A stretch of DNA of 58,065 bases, counting the filler, from Porpidia crustulata (Eukaryota): NCBI GenBank assembly GCA_964255105.1. It is 5 parts of 5 records of this genome, joined end to end, with 100 filler letters (N's around TTAATTAATTAA, not from the genome) between each part and the next. Parts side by side here need not be neighbours in the genome. Positions count along the whole stretch, not along the records: positions 11,639 to 23,173 come from CAXUWE010000641.1; 4 more parts are not named here. One strand, 5' to 3'. Numbering within the stretch: position 1 is the stretch's first letter; every line of letters starts with the position of its first letter. The position numbers and the translations under genes are program-made. The notes beneath the pieces were generated by a model that did no database searches, was not told the origin of the DNA, and saw nothing but the letters and a program-made list of their open reading frames with translations. This document shows, in pieces, positions 11,539 to 50,780 of this stretch.

Positions 11539-11638
11539 NNNNNNNNNNNNNNNNNNNNNNNNNNNNNNNNNNNNNNNNNNNNTTAATTAATTAANNNNNN
11601 NNNNNNNNNNNNNNNNNNNNNNNNNNNNNNNNNNNNNN
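11539..11638. other. Artificial contig spacer (N44-TTAATTAATTAA-N44)
   Basis: 100-nt N run with a central six-frame stop cassette, identical at four places. Confidence 0.98.
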
Positions 11639-12520
11639 GGCGTATTGGCCGGGGGCCCAGGGGAGCGGGAAGCCGAGCGAGTTTCAACTGTTTACGACGG
11701 TGACGTCGTTTTTAAGGGGCCTTGGTTGGTTTTTCGGAAGAGGGGGAGGGAGCGGTTGTGAGCTTGTAGTCGTACCATAGTGAGGAGGAAGAAGCGCATT
11801 AGATTGATTTGCTTGATGAAGTGGTTGTTGCTCTCAATAGAAAGAAGCAACGCCGGATAGATCCATCACACATCAGTTCTAACATAAGTTGTCCATTTTC
11901 TTATCTCCTTTTCTGAGCGATACCGCAGTGAAGCCATGATCACAAGCTATGATGAATTATTATAAAGCCCTACACTTTTCCTCCAGTCAAACCTTCGGCG
12001 CTCTTATGCGTCAATCCAACGACAAACAAGTCTTTCCTCCACCCCACCTTTGCGCCAGCCAAAAAATTCAGCAGCGCTCCCCACTCCTTTCCTTTTCCCT
12101 CCTTCCCAAAGAATACCTGACAATTGTCTCCCATGCTCCGCCTTTCTTCTCCTTTTTCTCTGCTGTTGGCTTCGTCCGGTACTTTCATGTTTCGGTCTCC
12201 CACCTGCCCTTCGCTCTTTGATAGTTCACGCCTCCTCTTTCGATGTCTACAGAAGTTTCCTTTTATACTTTCCGGCATTTTCTTTACGTATTGCCAAGAA
12301 CTCGCATGTCACGTCGGATCACTGCCACGATCTCGGAATTAATCTTACTTCATCTCGTCTCCTCGATACGGCTATTCTAACAAAAAAAAAGGAATCTCTC
12401 GACACAAGTGCATGATTGTTTGTCCTTTAACAATAGCAGACGCTTTGATAGCGCAACAACGATAGGAATGAAGGTAACGGAAACTGTATTAGGCGTTTTT
12501 TGTAAGTTGTCTTTTGGCTT

Positions 12521-12616
12521 TTGATCAAGTGGATTGGAAATGAAAAACGTGAAGATAGAAAAGCAAACCACTACACCATTGTACCAGCGCCATTAGGAAT
12601 CGAACCTAATCTGATT
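12521..12616 (-). repeat. Dispersed tRNA-like/B-box element, copy 1 (possible Pol III ncRNA or SINE-like repeat)
   Basis: Minus strand AATCAGATTAGGTTCGATTCCTAATGGCGCTGGTACAATGGTGTAGTGGTTT (12616-12565) matches 40349-40403 at 47 of 55 aligned columns. Weaker similarity continues to CCACTTGATCAA (12521). Confidence 0.75.
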
Positions 12617-13751
12617 GTAAACTAAACGGTTCATCACGAAGATGGGTTTTGAGACATTGATTTCTCAAGGCGCGAACTCGTATGACTTTTCTTATAGTCC
12701 TTCTCACCCATACCGTACTAAAAAGACATAGTGGTTTATTTTGCGGTTAGAGTTTCAATATACCATAGCTAGGAGGACGGCTGGAGTGTTGTGATTTCAA
12801 TGCAACAGATACAAGGTAAATGGTATTTGTAGAAAGAATTGACAAGAAAATCGTTAAAACGATTTATTGTAATGTAAGTATCGGAAGGGGAAGGATTACA
12901 GTATGGTAAAAGTACATAAAACGTTCATGTAATACGTTACCGTTTCGTCTAGAACCGCAAATGATAATACCTTATAGTGCGAGCGTTGGAATTAGTTTAC
13001 ATTGCTAAGCGAACTAAGCTTAGGTACCTTAGTTTCAAAAAGTAGTGTGGGGGGTTCCCGGAAGAGATCCTGGTAGCCCTACAGTACTACTTTACTCTAT
13101 TCGTGTGATACTTCGCTTCGACTTCCGAACGACACCACCACTACAGCCTGCCACCTGCCCTTTTGTTACACGCCTCGACCCGCATGCGCCTGCACCCTCA
13201 TACCCTGAGAATGAATCTGCTCTTCTCTTTTCGTCGCTCCTATGATGCCATACTGTCCGCTGTTCCCACTCCCCACCTCCTAGATATCCCGAACTCCAAT
13301 GGCTGCTTCGACGTAATTTGGCAAGCTCTTTCCATTGTTTCCGCTTGATAATTTTCTTACGTACTGTCATTTTCGTGCAATCGGCAAGAGATAAGGGACG
13401 TATGCAGCGTGATACAGCATACGGCAACTCTTACTTGTGATTGCCAGTTCAAGACCAATTGCCGTTGTCCAGACCTGCGTCTATAGTCTCCATGGTGCAT
13501 CGAAGGCGGGAGAAAATTGTTGCGGCATATCGATCAGAAATGTTCGGATATGCTCGCGCGACAAACTGCCTTCTCTATCATCGTTTTCTTGGCTTAGAAC
13601 CACTAGCAATCATGGTTGGACTATATACTTTTTTCCTTTATTCGTCGGACCATGCTAGCCTTCTCGTTATTACAGTTGTAAATCTCTTTTCCTTGCCACT
13701 GCATGTAATTACTACTTTGGGTCTTTAGCCTCGCCAAACACCCCACCAAAT

Positions 13752-13826
13752 ATGTGCCCTTCCAATTTTCCCTGTGGAAAATACTGTTGCCATTGCAAAG
13801 CACCATTGATCAATAGAAAACCTTGA
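13752..13826 (+). other. Candidate Cys-rich upstream ORF (MCPSNFPCGKYCCHCKAPLINRKP*)
   Basis: 24 codons, 5 Cys, A at -3, stop 38 nt before the MATE ATG. Confidence 0.3.
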
Positions 13827-13864
13827 ATACTACTCCAGCGACCCTCCGCTGGCTGCTCACTGTC

Positions 13865-15456
13865 ATGAAAAGTTCCAAGACCAACAAAACCTCATCTGGA
13901 GATTCTTCACCAGATGAGAGGTCCGGCCTCATCCCAAAATCAGGGAGTAGGGCACCGTCCGTGAGTGATGACAATGGAGAGATTTTTGACCTTGAAGACA
14001 ACGGAGAATCAAAGTCGAAGAATGTGCTTCGAGAATTTAAGATCCTTCTCCGGGGTTCCATACCGGTGATTTTGGCCTACATGCTACAGAATTCATTACA
14101 AACAATATCTGTAGTCATTGTGGGGCGAGGTTCACCGGAGGATCTGGCCACTGCAGCTTTCTCATATATGTTTGCTATGAGTACGGCCTGGTTGGTAGCC
14201 TTGGGCGGTACTACCGCGCTGGACACGCTCTGTTCTTCAACGTTTACTGGAAGCAAAAACCCCCATGACCTGGGCGTCCTTCTCCAACGGGCTTTTATCG
14301 TCCTCGGACTATTCTATATCCCGGTGGCTGTTCTATGGTTTTGCTCGGAACCGGTCTTCAAGGCTTTGGGGCAAGAAGATCAACTGTCGAGAGATAGTGC
14401 TCGGTTTCTCTGGTGTTTGATACCTGGTGGCCTAGGGTACATCTACTTCGAAGCCTTGAAAAAATATTTACAGGCACAAGGTTTGTCAAAGTCTTGCCCA
14501 CTCTATCTCCTGCTTATAAGTCTCTAGAAATCATGCGGCCAGGAACATATGTCCTTCTCCTCACTTCGCCTATCAACGCCGCCCTCAACTTTCTTTTCGT
14601 CTACACCTTCAAGATGGGTCTATTGGGAGCGCCTATCGCCACTGGCATTTCCTATTGGCTTTCGTTCCTGCTGCTATTGGCTTACGCGCGCTTGATCGAC
14701 GGCTGGGATTCATGGGGTGGATGGTCGCGTAAATGTCTGCACAATATAGGTACCTTCGCACGCCTTGCCATCCTTGGTGTCGTCCATGTAGGAACCGAAT
14801 GGTGGGCCTTTGAGATTGTTGCATTGGCTGCTGGCAGACTTGGAACAATTCCCCTAGCTGCGCAAAGCGTCATCATGACTTCAGACCAGGTTATGAACAC
14901 GATTCCATTCGGAGTAGGGGTTACAGCGAGCGCGAGAGTAGGGAATCTGTTAGGTGCTAAGAACGCCAAAGGTGCCGCTAGGGCTGCCAATACTGCTGCT
15001 TGGTTGAGCATGATACTTGGAGCTGTGGTACTCGCGATCCTCATGGGTACCAAAGATCATTTTGCGCAGATTTTTAACAATGATCCTGATGTGGTTAAGC
15101 TCACTGCCGAAGTCATTCCTTTCGTCGCTTTATTTCAGGTTGCGGATGGTCTGAATGGGAGCTGCGGAGGTAGCCTCAGAGGGATGGGAAGGCAGCATAT
15201 TGGAGCGGCAGTCAACATCATCAGCTATTACTGCGGTGCACTACCTCTCGGGATCTATCTCGCATTCCATGGATGGGGCCTCAAGGGGTTGTGGGTTGGC
15301 CAATGTATAGCGCTGTACATTGTTGGGATCCTCGAGTGGGCCATTGTGGCCTTTTGTAACTGGGACCATCAGGTCAAGAAGGCATTTGAGAGAATGGATG
15401 AAGGCGAAAGGGTCGAAAATGGTACGCTCTCTCCAGAAGATGGGAATACTAAATAG
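13865..15456 (+). CDS. MATE family efflux transporter (ERC1-like), 2 exons
   Basis: GGTTALDTLCS, YFEALKKYLQAQ, EWWAFEIVALAAGRLG, RVGNLLGA, FQVADGLNGSCGGSLRGMGRQ; intron 14481-14527. Confidence 0.95.
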
Positions 15457-23173: not shown

Positions 23174-23273
23174 NNNNNNNNNNNNNNNNNNNNNNNNNNN
23201 NNNNNNNNNNNNNNNNNTTAATTAATTAANNNNNNNNNNNNNNNNNNNNNNNNNNNNNNNNNNNNNNNNNNNN
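23174..23273. other. Artificial contig spacer
   Basis: N44-TTAATTAATTAA-N44. Confidence 0.98.
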
Positions 23274-34807: not shown

Positions 34808-34907
34808 NNNNNNNNNNNNNNNNNNNNNNNNNNNNNNNNNNNNNNNNNNNNTTAATTAATTAANNNNNNNNNNNNNNNNNNNNNNNNNNNNNNNNNNNNN
34901 NNNNNNN
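34808..34907. other. Artificial contig spacer
   Basis: N44-TTAATTAATTAA-N44. Confidence 0.98.
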
Positions 34908-37528: not shown

Positions 37529-38801
37529 CTAAGCCCAATCATTCCTATAAGTCTTTGCGTTTAAATTCTCCAGCGAATGTGCCTTCTCCTCCGTGATAAT
37601 CACCTCCGTCGTTTTCCGAATTGACCAAACATCCAAGGGTCCGATTTCCGCATCTCTGGATGAAAAAAAGCCCCCTTGTGCATGCGTAAACCGACTGGCC
37701 GAAGCGTGCGAGGAGGGAAATTTAGACAGAGGCTGGAAGGGGTGGGAACGGTGGGCCGGCGAGATATGCGGGCCACTTTTGACGAAGAAGTACATGGTGC
37801 GGGCGAGGGCGAGATTGGCCGCTACAATACAAAGGTATTCTTCGACGCTGTCTCAGGTCAGCACTCTATATACTGTGGAGAGGGTGATTCAAAACGGACC
37901 AGCCAAAGATGAACAGATCCGTCATGCTCCCTGCGATTATCGTCAGAAATGCCGATGATGCCAAATGGTGGAGGACTCACAAGTCAGATCATTTTGGGAA
38001 TACCCGTTGACAGCAGACCTTACCACACCAAATGCCGTACCACTACGTGACATGTGAGCGATAGCTGAACAGGTCGGAGATGACAGTAAGCATACACCAA
38101 GCCGAGACTCATGAGACCACACACAGATGCCTTGAGACGAAAGGTGATGTTGACATTCCAGAGTACTGCGGCTGGCAAAAGGGCGCAGATGAAATCCGAC
38201 ACGATAGCATAAGCTCGTGTATTATCAGCATCGAATACGTCAAAGCAAAGAGAGTGGCCATACCGGCTTGGGTCCAAAGAACGGAGTTGTACACAGACTG
38301 ACTCGTACATGTTCCTTTGCTTCTGTCCCAAAAAGTACTTATCGGTCGGCATTGAACGAACAAGATGATCTCCGGCACGACGGCTGTGATGACCACACCC
38401 GCCATCAATGTGTAAATCACCCACTTGATCCAGCCAGTGGTCTTAGTCCGAAGGAATAGGAGGAAAATTGAGAGCTTGGTCAGACAAAAGATGCCGAAGA
38501 ATAGAGTCATCACAGCAAAGCTCCATTTGGTCGCTTCCTTGGTCTTTTCGACGCCGAGGTAGAACGCATGTCGCCCAGCACCTTCGTGATACTGAAGACC
38601 ACAAAAGATGATTTGTACAAGCAGCAAGACGGTAGCAAGCGCGATGGTGAAGTCGTCCCAACCTTGCTGGCGATTGGCCAGCCGCACGCCTACTCTCAAG
38701 ACGGTCGTTATCGCTGAAAAGAGGCCGAGTACGACAACGATTATGATATGAATTGTGCCCTTGGACACATCGCCATCTGGGGGTGGAGTTGTGAAATCCA
38801 T
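37529..38801 (-). CDS. PTH11-like (fungal rhodopsin-domain, CFEM-less) integral membrane protein
   Basis: PPPDGD N-terminus, LRVGVR, GWDD, GAGRH, TKLSI, QCRPISTFWD, SDFICALLP..LWNV, VEEYLCIVAANL; several GT-AG introns. Confidence 0.88.
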
Positions 38802-39506
38802 ATCAAGAAAATGATATTGTACGCATTTACTGGAGAGATCGTGTTCGGAGGAAGTGGGTACTAATAGAGGGACCAGAACGGGACGATCAGAGTCTCATTA
38901 CGAAGAACTCCCCATAAGCTGATCAGGGTGTGAAGAACGAAAGCTGAACATGCTGAGTTGAATCATACGAAGAGAGGAAATCAAGAGCAACTACACAGAG
39001 GAGTGACGGCTGCGCCTCGTTCAGACATACATGAACGGAGCCAACTCGGGTGTGCCTATCGTGCTGCCGAAGCTATCAGGGTGTCAGGGTACCCACACTC
39101 ATCGACAGCATACAAAATCGAACGCCATGAGGCACGGGTATATGCAACCAGCAGAACGGGTGCAAAGGACCGACCTGCGGCACCTAACATGTGGCATGCC
39201 TCTCAGAACGAGGAGGAACATGCAGGGCACAAGGACAAGGCCTCGCCAGGGTATTAGTTTGAATCAGAAAGGGAGAGAGGTCAGAGTCGGTGGCCCGTTT
39301 CATGTTCCAACAAGCTGGCCCAGCAATACGCCATCTCACCGCTGACGAGTTGCCATGCATTGTTTTAATGCATGAGTGGGAATAAGATGACAATTAACGA
39401 TGTCCAGTCAGACCTGCAGAGGAGCTCGGCGGATACAACCAACTTCTTCCAGCGCCCTGGGTGCCTGGGAAAGCCACACACACTCTCTTTATCCAGGCCT
39501 GCCTAT

Positions 39507-39536: not shown

Positions 39537-40348
39537 TACACATAACAAGGGTCCGCTCAAGGCTCGGCGCTCAGCGATAACGGGAGATTCGGTTAGGCCA
39601 AGGAAAGCGAGATTCCAGTGGTGTGTACTGACAATGCAATTGATCCATTTCTAACGACCCGTCTACCATCTGCAACGCAAAAATTATTGCAGCTGTTGAA
39701 AAGCAAAGATTGGCTTTATTTGAGAATGGTTGTGCCGCAATATGGTCAGAAGAATGCGATTGGTGGATCTTTAGGAACGACTGAACGAGGGCTGACAGAC
39801 TCCTGAAGTTTCCGCTGTCTGCATTACATCAATTGGAGTACTAGTTCATTTTACCCTGTAGAAAACCATCGCTAGTCCAAATTACCTTACTCTAGCGTAA
39901 TTAGACGAGATTGCCCGTGTGCGTGAGCGGAGAGACTTAGAGTCACACAGTGAAGAACTACAAGCTCGCTGTCGCTTCGGGCGCATTCTGTATACTACAA
40001 TTTGCAATTGAGAGCAATGACTTCGATATTGTGTACAAATTCGGGCTTGATTAGCAGTGTTCTGAAAAACGAAAAATTACTGTTATCAAAATTATGCAAC
40101 AAAACAAACTGTATTCTGCATCTTGCAAATGCAATGTCGCAAGATAATTCGACGACAGCGCGCTTGAATTTCCTCACTTGAACCAGATGTTCAAGATAGT
40201 CAGTCGGGACTATTCAGATACCTTGGATTAATTCGATCCGTGCCACCCACCTACGCAACCTGAAGATAACGTTCCTAGGAGCTCATGAACATCTCTTTGC
40301 CATCTTCCCCTCTCCTACAAGCCACCATGTGTTTGCCGTTGAATAGTT

Positions 40349-40430
40349 AATCACAATAGGTTCGATTCCTATCTTGGCGCTGGTACAGTTGGTGTTGTGG
40401 TTTTATCTTTTCTCCATGTCCACTTGTCAA
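40349..40430 (+). repeat. Dispersed tRNA-like/B-box element, copy 2
   Basis: AATCACAATAGGTTCGATTCCTATCTTGGCGCTGGTACAGTTGGTGTTGTGGTTTT; homologous to 12565-12616 (minus); downstream CCACTTGTCAA also shared. Confidence 0.75.
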
Positions 40431-41739: not shown

Positions 41740-43165
41740 TTAATCTTCCTCCCCCTCCAAGACAGCCTCGATCAATCTCTGCACGCCCGATTCCTTCGTC
41801 TTAATGCCAGTAATCTTCAGTCCCACGGACTTCAGAAGGCTACGCCATTGAGGCTCTGTCCACTCCGAAGATGCTGCATGAGCCATCATGAACCAGTCCA
41901 GCAAGGTGACCTTCCACGATGCTCCGACGTCCAAAACGACATTTTCGTTGATGAGGATCTTCGAATATCCATTCTCCATGGCTGGAATAAGCTGATGAAG
42001 GACTTCGCGGCATCGCTCGTCGGTCCAGTCGTGGAGGACGGAGTGTAAATAGTAAGCTTTTGCCCTGGCATCTATTAGCAACGAAGAAAGAGCAAGTCGA
42101 GACTCCAACCTTTCACCGGCTATGGAGTTGAAAGTTGTGGATGGTTAGTTCAATCCCTGTGTCTATGTAATCTATCTGGCTGATGACACTCGGAATATCC
42201 TGCAGAACGAGACACCCAGGGAGTTCGGGATGCTTTGCCTTGAATGTGATCGAAACGTGTCCCAAACTTCCACCAACGTCCACAATTTGAGCCTCGGAGC
42301 CGCCTTCAAGGCCATTCCCTACCCTTTGTTTCACAGGATAAAAATCATGTTCTGCCCACCTAGGCTAGCCCCCGATATATCCAACCATATGATTGTTGAA
42401 TGCCTGTTAGACTGCTAGATGCTCAACTCTCCAATCCTTGCAGGAAAGCTTCGTGTCATGCCCGTATTGGAATGGCCCGTTATTCGGATCTTGGGGATTC
42501 TTATATGTGTTGTCCGACAGATAGTTAGGAAGTTTGAGGAAAGATGGCCCTGCACAGTCGAGACTGTACTCTCCTTCAGAGTTTCTCCGGCTATATACGA
42601 GACTACTCACCAAAAAGGTACCCCATCACGGTACTTTGAAATGGTCAAAGCCTTCGAAAAAGCGGTGGGTGCAAACTGGTCTGCTTCAACTTCCGCAATC
42701 ATGTGCATTGCAGAAGGGTGTTTCAAGATTCTTCCTACATGTAGCGAGGACCTGTAAGCGTCTATCATTCGTCCGAGAACAAAAGCAACTAACCAACCAG
42801 CACAGGATCTCCACCGACCTTGATCGCCAGTTCCGTACTGCTCTTCGTACGATCATCCTCATCCATCGGTCGCACAAACAACCCAAGTCAATGGCTACTC
42901 GGGTAGCAGTGTTCCTGATTGGCTAGTAAAACAGGTTCAGCTAGGCCTAAAGATGTTAGATCTAGGTATCTACCTCTGCCCACGTCATCCAAGTGATTGC
43001 CTCAATGGGTGTTTCGAGCGCAGCAATTAGACGTCAGGCGTTTGCTATCAATTATTCTCGTGCACCTGCTTTCTTCTAAGAAAATACTTCTTCGATCAAA
43101 GTAATATTACTCAGAAGAGCAGTGACGGCAGTAGATTGAGTGTTCCAGGGAGTAGTGGACGTCAT
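41740..43165 (-). pseudogene. SAM-dependent O-methyltransferase (secondary-metabolite type) pseudogene
   Basis: LIAALETPIE, GPFQYGHDT, AFNNHM, VDVGGSLGH, LVLQD, AKAYYLHSVLHDW, SKILINENV motifs, with at least six in-frame stops and a frameshift near 42130. Confidence 0.9.
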
Positions 43166-43885
43166 CCTGAGAAGTTAACAAAGCTATTAGCTGGATATGC
43201 TGGGATCGATCAAACTCGACTCGAACAGATTCATCTAATAGTAGTAATATCCCCCAATTTTCCCTCAGAATGGATATACTTATTAGATCCCTCACGCCGT
43301 CTCACATAAGCCACATCCTCACTTTCTCTTCAATTTTCAAATCTCTATCCTGCTATCATCGCTATTGTTCTCATTCCGCCTTATTTCGCCGTACGCCTGC
43401 TTTCATGCTACCTCGGTTTCTCAGGAATGAGAAAGCAAATACCCACGAGAAATATTCGGACAAACACAGCCGCATGAAACCATTCATCTGCAACCACACA
43501 CGTGTGTATCCAACCAAGTCGCGGATTCCCTTGTTGCCTGTCAGCCATACGTAGTATGCGTTCTTACTATATGGTGGTATTGCACCGTGTAAGAAGGCTC
43601 CCGTAGAAAGAGGAACGTACCACTGCATTACTGTACTCTCTCCACTCAAAATCGAATGCATTGCTGAACAGAATAACACAAAAAAAATTAAATACCTTAG
43701 ACTTCCCTAACCTTCTTTCTTTAATTTACCATCAGTCTTTGAATCTAGTCAAGCCTTTACTGCACCTTGAGAATGTTTGGAAACTAACCTCGAAGCATCC
43801 TCAAGGAGATAAAGCCTCAGATCTTGTCTCTGCTTGGGTCATCGCTTTTCGGCCAGTAGGCAAGACACGATCTCTAAAGCTAGAC

Positions 43886-46437: not shown

Positions 46438-46537
46438 NNNNNNNNNNNNNNNNNNNNNNNNNNNNNNNNNNNNNNNNNNNNTTAATTAATTAANNNNNNN
46501 NNNNNNNNNNNNNNNNNNNNNNNNNNNNNNNNNNNNN
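46438..46537. other. Artificial contig spacer
   Basis: N44-TTAATTAATTAA-N44. Confidence 0.98.
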
Positions 46538-50176: not shown

Positions 50177-50780
50177 TGTCAGAGGTCTGATTGAAATTTG
50201 TATCTTGACCTCCGATATTCTGGTACAATGATATAGTTTTCATGAAGACTTCTCCTTCGGTCTAGTAATTTCCGCCCCACCTCCTACCGGGCTGACTACT
50301 GAAAACTCCTGGTCAGGGCGTGGAGTATGTTGGACTTCAAAGACTGTCCTGCAGCGAGTAAGCGTATGCTACGAATAATGCGTTGGCACTTGAATGCTTA
50401 CTGCTTCCCTAATTGCTTTTCTTTCTCTAATTCCTCGAATGAGGGCTTTAACGTGTATATGCCTAAATTGGATGAGTAGGCGGATTCATGGTTTGGGTTT
50501 TGGCTCACTAGTTGCGATCCCAACTCCTGTCAGAAACACAAGCGTTAGTAGACTTTGAAGCCTGCTCATTGCATCAGTCGATGTCGTCGATTGTGATTGT
50601 TTAATGTTGGTGTCATATATATTGAAGAGTGCGCTAGAGTAGATCGACACTACATTAGAGTAGCTGTGGATAAGATAAGATCTGATAAAGTCGCGTAACC
50701 TAGAGAAAGGCGCGTAAACCTCTGGCACACTACAAAGACTGTCAGAAGTAGTTATCCAAACGCTATGAGTTGTATCTCAG

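Follow-up and report, generated by a model that had tools for sequence, protein, structure and literature searches.

The 58,065-base stretch of DNA analysed here (the window) contains two short matching sequences, one on the minus strand at 12557–12638 (copy 1) and one on the plus strand at 40330–40413 (copy 2), which an earlier note had described as an unannotated element with a tRNA T-arm hairpin. The window consists of five pieces of about 11.5 kb each, with spacers at 11539–11638, 23174–23273, 34808–34907 and 46438–46537 that are runs of N around TTAATTAATTAA; since the pieces are joined in this way, linkage between them is meaningless. The two copies sit in pieces 2 and 4, that is, on separate contigs as had been claimed. 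In what follows we argue that each copy is very probably a solo long terminal repeat (LTR) of a non-autonomous miniature LTR retrotransposon (TRIM).

Two flanked copies of a tRNA-like sequence

When 3 kb and 4 kb of sequence around the two copies were compared by blastn, the neighbourhoods shared one significant match of 47/55 columns (E 4e-10), which reproduces the alignment reported earlier. A looser alignment of the same neighbourhoods matched at 61/78 columns, and the copies match at 68/90 columns across their whole LTRs. The 55-column alignment holds three gap columns and five substitutions, four of which are transversions, as the earlier note had read them; they are unlike repeat-induced point mutation because the two copies belong to different subfamilies, as their 68/90 match over the whole LTRs indicates. 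The exact RNA polymerase III (Pol III) B box, GGTTCGATTCC, occurs twice in the 58,065 bases and nowhere else, at 12606 (minus) and 40359 (plus). Two nhmmer profiles gave only chance-level matches elsewhere in the window and no credible third copy; the candidates at 43600–43657 (E 0.057) and 50220–50240 (E 0.89) were inspected and rejected, neither having a B box.

Copy 1, read on the minus strand, is preceded by the target-site duplication ATCTT (12639–12643), and the same 5-mer follows it at 12556–12552. Between the duplications lies an LTR of 82 nt (CGTGATG...GCTTTTCT, 12557–12638; LTR profile E 1.8e-18). Within it we found a T-arm-like hairpin, ATTAGG/TTCGATT/CCTAAT (12592–12610), with the B box at 12606–12596; a sequence resembling the 3' strand of a tRNA acceptor stem, TGGCGCT plus G (12585–12592, read in the sequence); and a conserved trailer, GTACAATGGTGTAGTGG, that runs into a T-rich end (12557–12584). 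Copy 2, on the plus strand, is an LTR of 84 nt (TGTTTGCCG...ATCTTTTCT, 40330–40413; LTR profile E 6e-12) between the duplications CCATG at 40325–40329 and 40414–40418. Its hairpin, ATAGG/TTCGATT/CCTAT (40356–40372, B box at 40359–40369), is parted by a 2-nt insertion, CT (40373–40374), from the acceptor-like TGGCGCT plus G (40375–40382), and the conserved trailer with its T-rich end occupies 40383–40413. The 5-bp stem and 7-nt loop described earlier are thus present in both copies, as TTAGG/TTCGATT/CCTAA in copy 1 and ATAGG/TTCGATT/CCTAT in copy 2, with an outer pair of T-A in one and A-T in the other.

The TGGCGCT plus G that follows the hairpin has the position and length of a tRNA acceptor 3' strand with its discriminator base, and the conserved trailer of 25–30 nt is closed by a T-run in both window copies. 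Judged from its sequence, the LTR has a tRNA's 3' half at its core, made up of a T-arm with the B box, the 3' strand of the acceptor stem, the discriminator G, about 30 nt of trailer and a T-run.

Likeness between the copies ends at the same points in both, and a short direct repeat flanks each. Looking for duplications around the copies was one of the checks that the earlier note had proposed, and it returned a perfect one at each (5/5 bp in both cases, ATCTT and CCATG). In a shuffle test, a pair of 6-mer direct repeats arose in both copies 1.5% of the time; under the rule seen in the family, the repeats ATCTTC and CCATGT are 5-bp duplications plus one coincident base. The element defined by these boundaries differs from the span of 12521–12616 given before, which runs 36 nt too far past the 3' end (12557) and stops 22 nt short on the 5' side (12638). 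By reading of the sequence and by profile search, neither copy is followed by a primer-binding site (PBS) or a second repeat, and they are therefore solo LTRs; no PBS-like TGG[CT]AGCGCC occurs anywhere in the window.

Two further features near the 5' end of copy 1 were looked at. A perfect 6-bp inverted repeat, TTGAGA and TCTCAA separated by 8 nt, lies just upstream at 12648–12667 (minus); it belongs to the flanking DNA and is not common to copy 2 or the relatives. The motif GTGATGA at the 5' end of the copy raised the possibility of a C/D-box snoRNA, which was dropped, the motif being missing from copy 2 and from the relatives.

A dispersed family in the source organism and beyond

A contig run of the source organism (X1), in which the copy-1 locus is represented by 0.98 of its sampled words, and runs of two other organisms from the same study (B and C) were compared with window positions 12350–12850 (501 nt) at a likeness of at least 80%. 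X1 yielded 56 contig pieces. Two of these are the copy-1 locus itself, breaking inside the element at 12585 and 12587; the other 54 match only about 12557–12644 and then run into unlike flanks (loose-end agreement 0.41–0.63). In ten X1 contigs the match breaks off at exactly 12557, which is where the duplication places the 3' end. The dispersed, multi-copy family that had been proposed from two copies is borne out by these 54 pieces, and organisms B and C contributed 5 and 59 pieces, respectively. Word depth in X1 summed to 1031 over the core against 8–10 in the flanks, and the core sums were 11,953 in organism C (contigs at about 55 each) and 88 in organism B (about 17 each); as summed word depth is no copy number, we put the number of copies at dozens to perhaps a hundred or two. 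Past the trailer the loose ends are A-rich on the plus strand, which in the sense of the element is a T-run of variable length. Across the three organisms the acceptor-strand 8-mer and the trailer are as conserved as the B box. One X1 contig links 12594 back to 12557; there the acceptor strand and trailer of another copy are duplicated in tandem.

Metagenome contigs were scanned with a pattern of the core, GGTTCGATTCCTA followed after 0–3 bases by TGGCGCTGG, and at least 120 loci were found. The matches listed comprise 133 instances in 114 unique contexts, or 98 independent insertions after merging across assemblies, and all counts for metagenome relatives given below are among these matches. 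The contigs, up to 660 kb long, are eukaryote-like. In a control search of 596 billion bases of prokaryotic genomes the pattern occurred three times, all in one Arthrobacter coding region, and viral contigs gave 0 matches to it. The Arthrobacter instances (L121–L123) are chance occurrences of the core pattern in GC-rich coding sequence; there is no tRNA there, and by eye the stretch reads as the conserved GDS-type motif of an SGNH/GDSL-like hydrolase.

These figures bear on whether the likeness of the two copies could be accidental, or could reflect decayed fragments of tRNA genes spread by segmental duplication. The window itself, with only two copies, would allow this. However, the match between the copies has an E of 4e-10, dozens of further copies lie in unlike flanks, and three prokaryotic occurrences stand against at least 120 metagenome loci, so that we give this explanation next to no credence. 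The earlier note had named two outcomes that would count against its reading. One, that only these two copies exist with no further covariation, is contradicted by the dozens more; the other, that the sequence is part of a known transposon, holds in spirit, as the 55-base stretch is the conserved core of a retrotransposon LTR.

The metagenome LTRs fall into subfamilies that differ in their first ~28 nt and have sharp ends, starting with TGT or CGT and ending with CT or TT. A perfect 5-bp duplication bounds 54/86 solo copies, compared with 2.1 on average and never more than 7 in a flank-swapped control of 200 trials; the 32 solo-classed copies that have no duplication include decayed copies and 3' LTRs of composites missed by the tag. 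A profile built from 44 unique duplication-bounded metagenome LTRs found both window copies and nothing else credible in the window (copy 1, E 1.8e-18, envelope 12636–12552; copy 2, E 6e-12, envelope 40329–40415). Copy 1 matches its nearest metagenome LTR, of the L097 type, at 70/88 columns over the whole length, and copy 2 matches subfamily-B LTRs at 71/85, end to end with both termini. As no tRNA gene was found within 300–400 nt on either side of the ~98 insertions, there is no sign of targeting to tRNA genes.

Full-length relatives have paired LTRs and a primer-binding site

At 13 distinct places, two direct copies of the LTR lie 117–137 nt apart. These composites measure 286–313 bp in total, with LTRs of 81–97 nt and an internal domain of about 120–137 nt, and a perfect 5-bp duplication surrounds the whole composite in 11/13. 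At L013 the composite duplication, CTTAG, was recognised by eye around a 3' copy with a deletion, and the composite at L116 is cut by the contig end. The LTRs of a pair are identical (81/81, 87/87 or 88/88) in 8/14 composite loci listed, and match at 83/85 in L073; the identical pairs point to recent activity in the metagenome hosts. At L024/L028 a full-length element of 293 bp, with identical LTRs and the duplication GTCTT, is nested in the LTR trailer of an older copy. That older copy shows G-to-A and C-to-T changes in its LTR and PBS.

The PBS, TGGCAGCGCCATTAG, directly follows the 5' LTR in all four full-length subfamilies; its T closes the LTR in subfamilies A and B and stands as a base of its own in subfamily C. 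Four internal blocks are kept in all four subfamilies. The first consists of the PBS and then an A-box-like TTAGCCGCAGG, the second of a second B-box-like motif, GGTTCGAA(T/A)CC, and the third of a covarying GC hairpin (GTCCGG..CCGGAC vs GTCTG..CAGAC); the fourth is a G/T-rich tract (..GCCTGTTGGTTGTGGGTCG) that abuts the second LTR and has a hairpin before it.

In subfamily A the second B-box-like motif lies about 47 nt, a tRNA-like distance, from the start of the acceptor-like AGCGCCA. The junction between LTR and internal domain resembles a circularly permuted tRNA (L059, L077, L080, L014, L073 and L056). A permuted tRNA, or a giant tRNA-like RNA made of the internal domain and the 3' LTR, was considered; ARAGORN with introns allowed and Rfam gave nothing for either, and the idea survives only within the priming proposal discussed below.

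We propose that an autonomous LTR element would provide, in trans, the enzymes that reverse-transcribe the RNA of this element and integrate the product with 5-bp duplications, and that LTR–LTR recombination would then yield solo LTRs like the window copies, no longer mobile. Several observations weigh against calling this an LTR retrotransposon. The LTRs start with TG or CG and finish with CT or TT where TG...CA would be canonical, and the tract before the 3' LTR is G/T-rich, not a clean polypurine run. The window holds no full-length element, so that the LTR–PBS–LTR anatomy comes from metagenome relatives that are 78–84% identical, and no autonomous partner was found. The non-canonical ends weaken the claim of a typical LTR element; the evidence from repeats, PBS and duplications stands. 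Taken as a whole, we are confident that this is the best explanation of the two window copies.

Dispersed copies that hold a B box in tRNA-like sequence, keep the same 3' end and resemble one another over a variable 5' extent would also fit a tRNA-derived short interspersed nuclear element (SINE), or a Pol III transcript whose 5'-truncated retrocopies were moved by a long interspersed nuclear element (LINE); a SINE-like nature was among the suggestions of the earlier note. Against this, the duplication is fixed at 5 bp (54/86 solo copies and 11/13 composites), identical direct repeats flank an internal domain with a PBS, there is no A-rich, simple-repeat or LINE-like tail, and the LTR has no recognisable tRNA head. 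The variable 5' extent, moreover, reflects divergence of the first ~28 nt between subfamilies and not truncation. We consider a SINE very improbable.

The other two suggestions of that note were a small Pol III RNA and a TFIIIC boundary site. Host genes for such an RNA, or TFIIIC-only ('ETC'-like) sites, would fit the perfect B box, the T-run 25–30 nt downstream and the conservation of the core in three organisms, and solo LTRs could secondarily serve in this way. The searches speak otherwise. ARAGORN called 0 tRNAs in the window and, with introns allowed, 0 in the at least 120 metagenome loci listed. Rfam found no tRNA or other credible family in the window at the gathering threshold; at E up to 10, both copies and four full-length relatives gave no tRNA and only rows with E of at least 4. 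Fold stability is not unusual, copy 2 has its 2-nt insertion between hairpin and acceptor strand, and the family has the hallmarks of insertion (duplications, subfamilies and nested insertions); the element can be explained with no host TFIIIC boundary site. Host Pol III genes or boundary sites are thus a very unlikely source of the window copies.

The LTR is complementary to its own primer-binding site

In the relatives the LTR 12-mer CTAATGGCGCTG takes in the T-stem's 3' strand as well as the acceptor strand and the discriminator, and it is exactly reverse-complementary to CAGCGCCATTAG in the PBS 31–38 nt downstream. This 12-nt complementarity is present in all four full-length subfamilies, and in front of the complement in the PBS stands TGG, which is complementary to a CCA tail. 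In copy 1, TGGCGCT plus G together with CTAA makes up the 12-mer complementary to the PBS of the family, the complementarity being observed in the full-length relatives; the counterpart in copy 2 reads CCTATCTT. Predicted folds of the 5' LTR with the PBS pair the complementary segments in a 12-bp helix, and in the predicted fold of L014 the T-arm is directly followed by a 7-bp acceptor-like helix, as in the 'top half' of a tRNA. The 3' LTR of L013 (sense-strand index ~600–680) reads ...CCTAATGGCGCTG-CCA-G and then passes into the T-rich end, with 16 nt of the trailer missing. Its CCA stands exactly after the discriminator-like G and may be the footprint of a copied, CCA-tailed RNA derived from the LTR.

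From these features we propose that the LTR 12-mer would pair with the PBS in the element RNA to form a tRNA 'top half', a T-arm stacked on a 7-bp acceptor stem, and that this pairing would supply the primer for minus-strand synthesis. It could do so (a) by pairing in cis, as in Tf1, or (b) if an LTR-derived RNA, or the 5' end of the element RNA, were cut after the discriminator G, given a CCA tail by the tRNA 3'-end enzymes and then used as primer. Those enzymes need only the acceptor and T-arm helix. The B boxes and T-runs may also recruit TFIIIC and Pol III, as proposed for Helenus/TRIMp3, the group of elements to which we compare the family below. That the tRNA-like core is conserved because LTR–PBS pairing supplies the primer, by either route, is a proposal that we think could equally well turn out right or wrong. 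Route (b) alone, in which the element would prime itself by tRNA mimicry and stand between tRNA-primed and Tf1-type retroelements, is offered tentatively and strikes us as rather unlikely.

In the alternative arrangement, a host tRNA primes at the PBS and the tRNA part of the LTR is a Pol III promoter and terminator or a relic, the LTR and the primer sharing a tRNA ancestor. This is possible, if somewhat doubtful. In its favour, the B box is perfect, and the LTR ends in T-runs in the window as in the relatives; a second B-box-like motif and, at tRNA-like spacing, the A-box-like sequence are conserved internally; TGG before the PBS fits any CCA-ended tRNA primer; and host-tRNA priming has been proposed in print for the closest known group (PMC10886601). 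That study, however, sought such complementarity in Helenus and found it in no family, which makes a coincidence of the two tRNA identities unlikely a priori (PMC10886601). A promoter role would explain the B box but not the equal conservation of the acceptor 8-mer and the trailer in three organisms, and most LTR subfamilies have no clear box A. By eye an A box is convincing only in subfamily C (TGGTCAGTTCTGG), whereas in subfamilies A, B and D, as in both window copies, there is at most a TTGCY lacking the A-box spacing. No host tRNA with this 3' end was present in the ~160 kb of host sequence scanned, which held 0 tRNAs.

Folding and covariation enter on both sides of this question. At positions that the search pattern leaves free, the stem pairs are complementary in 95/98 (51:63), 94/98 (50:64) and 71/97 (49:65) insertions. 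The outer pair 49:65 is T-A in 57, A-T in 12 and T-G in 2 of 97 insertions, so that the covariation noticed between the two window copies extends across the family. Where position 65 is T, position 49 is A in 12/14; where it is A, position 49 is A in 2/81. As these are inherited states and not 12 events, the exchange of T-A for A-T may have occurred once or a few times. In the minimum-energy folds of the two window LTRs the hairpin is present in copy 1 and, with the LTR taken alone, absent from copy 2.

Several points count against priming by LTR–PBS pairing. Of 97 insertions, 26 leave the outer pair unpaired, and in 21 of these it is the G.A of subfamily B, whose activity is the most recent. 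Folded alone, the window LTRs are no more stable than shuffled sequences (z +0.45 and -0.32), and the 5' LTR with the PBS is only weakly more so (z -0.89 and -1.96). The metagenome pattern fixes 22 core bases, which makes the conservation of those bases in the sample circular. The CCA footprint is a single case, for which rearrangement between the complementary arms is also possible. No full-length copy of a subfamily with a changed 12-mer (CCTATT or CCTAGT types) is present among the at least 120 loci listed, and the PBS would be accounted for just as well by a host tRNA sharing this 3' end.

Neighbouring genes, host and implications

Copy 1 is situated upstream of a MatE transporter gene (13817–15456, plus), at a distance of about 1.2 kb; the gene is split over two reading frames (13817–14527 and 14398–15456) in a way that fits a short intron, as in a fungal gene. 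Copy 2 lies between a gene with a Fung_rhodopsin domain (38109–38894, minus) and a Methyltransf_2 (O-methyltransferase) gene (41740–42144, minus). In the protein atlas, the clusters closest to the Fung_rhodopsin protein occur most often in Ascomycota, and on this weak indication we take the host to be a fungus, probably an ascomycete.

For annotation, both 'intergenic' elements and the dozens more are transposon remnants to be masked, and not tRNA fragments, SINEs or small-RNA genes. The solo LTRs scatter a perfect B box and a T-run near genes, where they could act as putative TFIIIC sites. The family extends TRIMs with tRNA sequence to a probable ascomycete, to the lower known size limit of LTR retrotransposons (286–313 bp among the matches listed) and to a family whose tRNA-like LTR end is complementary to its own PBS. 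If the pairing does supply the primer, it would illustrate one way for self-priming to arise from tRNA priming, and how a non-coding retrotransposon parasite secures its primer.

Relation to known elements

The closest known kind is Helenus/TRIMp3, to which we liken it through the published description. Helenus elements are TRIMs with tRNA-derived sequence in their LTRs, found in Pucciniales, three Agaricomycetes, several animal phyla and Selaginella, and are grouped with Cassandra (5S) and Ajax as TRIMp3 (Kojima 2024; PMC10886601). The fungal members make 5-bp duplications and are rich in solo LTRs, and Copia elements probably mobilise them; the paper words box A as TRGCY ... YGG, and the GGTTC of box B is conserved (PMC10886601). 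With this group the present family shares LTR sequence that derives from a tRNA and holds a B box, present in the two window copies as well as in relatives (whose core was fixed by the pattern), and also a PBS directly after the 5' LTR, the 5-bp duplications of the fungal members, many solo LTRs and co-existing subfamilies. It differs in that its LTR contains just a tRNA's 3' half, with neither a cloverleaf nor, in most subfamilies, a clear box A, and in the second B-box-like and A-box-like motifs of its internal domain. It is also smaller, at 286–313 bp with LTRs of 81–97 nt among the matches listed, compared with a published range of 311–1263 bp (PMC10886601). Exact LTR–PBS complementarity, present here, was sought in Helenus and found in no family of that group, and the word 'Ascomycota', the probable placing of the present host, occurs 0 times in the paper (PMC10886601). 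Literature listings on Helenus/TRIMp3 since that paper, on fungal TRIMs and on self-priming include no paper that describes such a family.

Cassandra is likewise a TRIM with a fragment of a Pol III-type small-RNA gene in its LTR and conserved promoter and terminator motifs, but it carries 5S rRNA sequence, measures 565–860 bp and occurs in plants (PMC10886601). Its Pol III transcription has been shown experimentally (PMC10886601), whereas the present family is known from sequence alone. With SMARTs and ordinary TRIMs the family has in common its size class, the layout of LTR, PBS, a tract in the place of the polypurine tract and LTR, the lack of coding capacity and the presumed dependence on an autonomous partner; the LTRs of ordinary TRIMs, in contrast, are not derived from small RNAs. 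The shortest reported elements are SMARTs of 292 bp (PMC10886601), and the L073-type copy, at 286 bp, would fall marginally below that minimum.

Among SINEs, the AfuSINE families of Aspergillus fumigatus have duplications of 4–14 bp (PMC5063351). SINE2 elements of this kind are also short, dispersed, tRNA-related and non-coding; unlike the present family, they have a full tRNA-like head with A and B boxes, depend on LINEs, make duplications of variable length and lack terminal repeats and a PBS. The TFIIIC-only ETC sites of yeast consist of an isolated B box with no tRNA gene and are single conserved host loci. The present family, by contrast, is mobile and makes target duplications, and the B-box motif is all that is visible here of such a site.

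Tf1 and the sushi elements resemble the family in that a stretch of their own LTR (12 nt here) is exactly complementary to a PBS shortly downstream, and in their fungal host group. The duplications of Tf1 are 5 bp long, as are those of the present family. In Tf1 the initial 11 bases of its RNA anneal to the PBS and RNase H cleaves between bases 11 and 12 (PMC7175516). Tf1 differs in being autonomous and in having a primer stretch that is not tRNA-like, whereas here the acceptor strand stands beside a T-arm and TGG is kept at the PBS. These comparisons place the family as a recently described kind of transposon in an unusually small variant, and not as a new class of Pol III genes.

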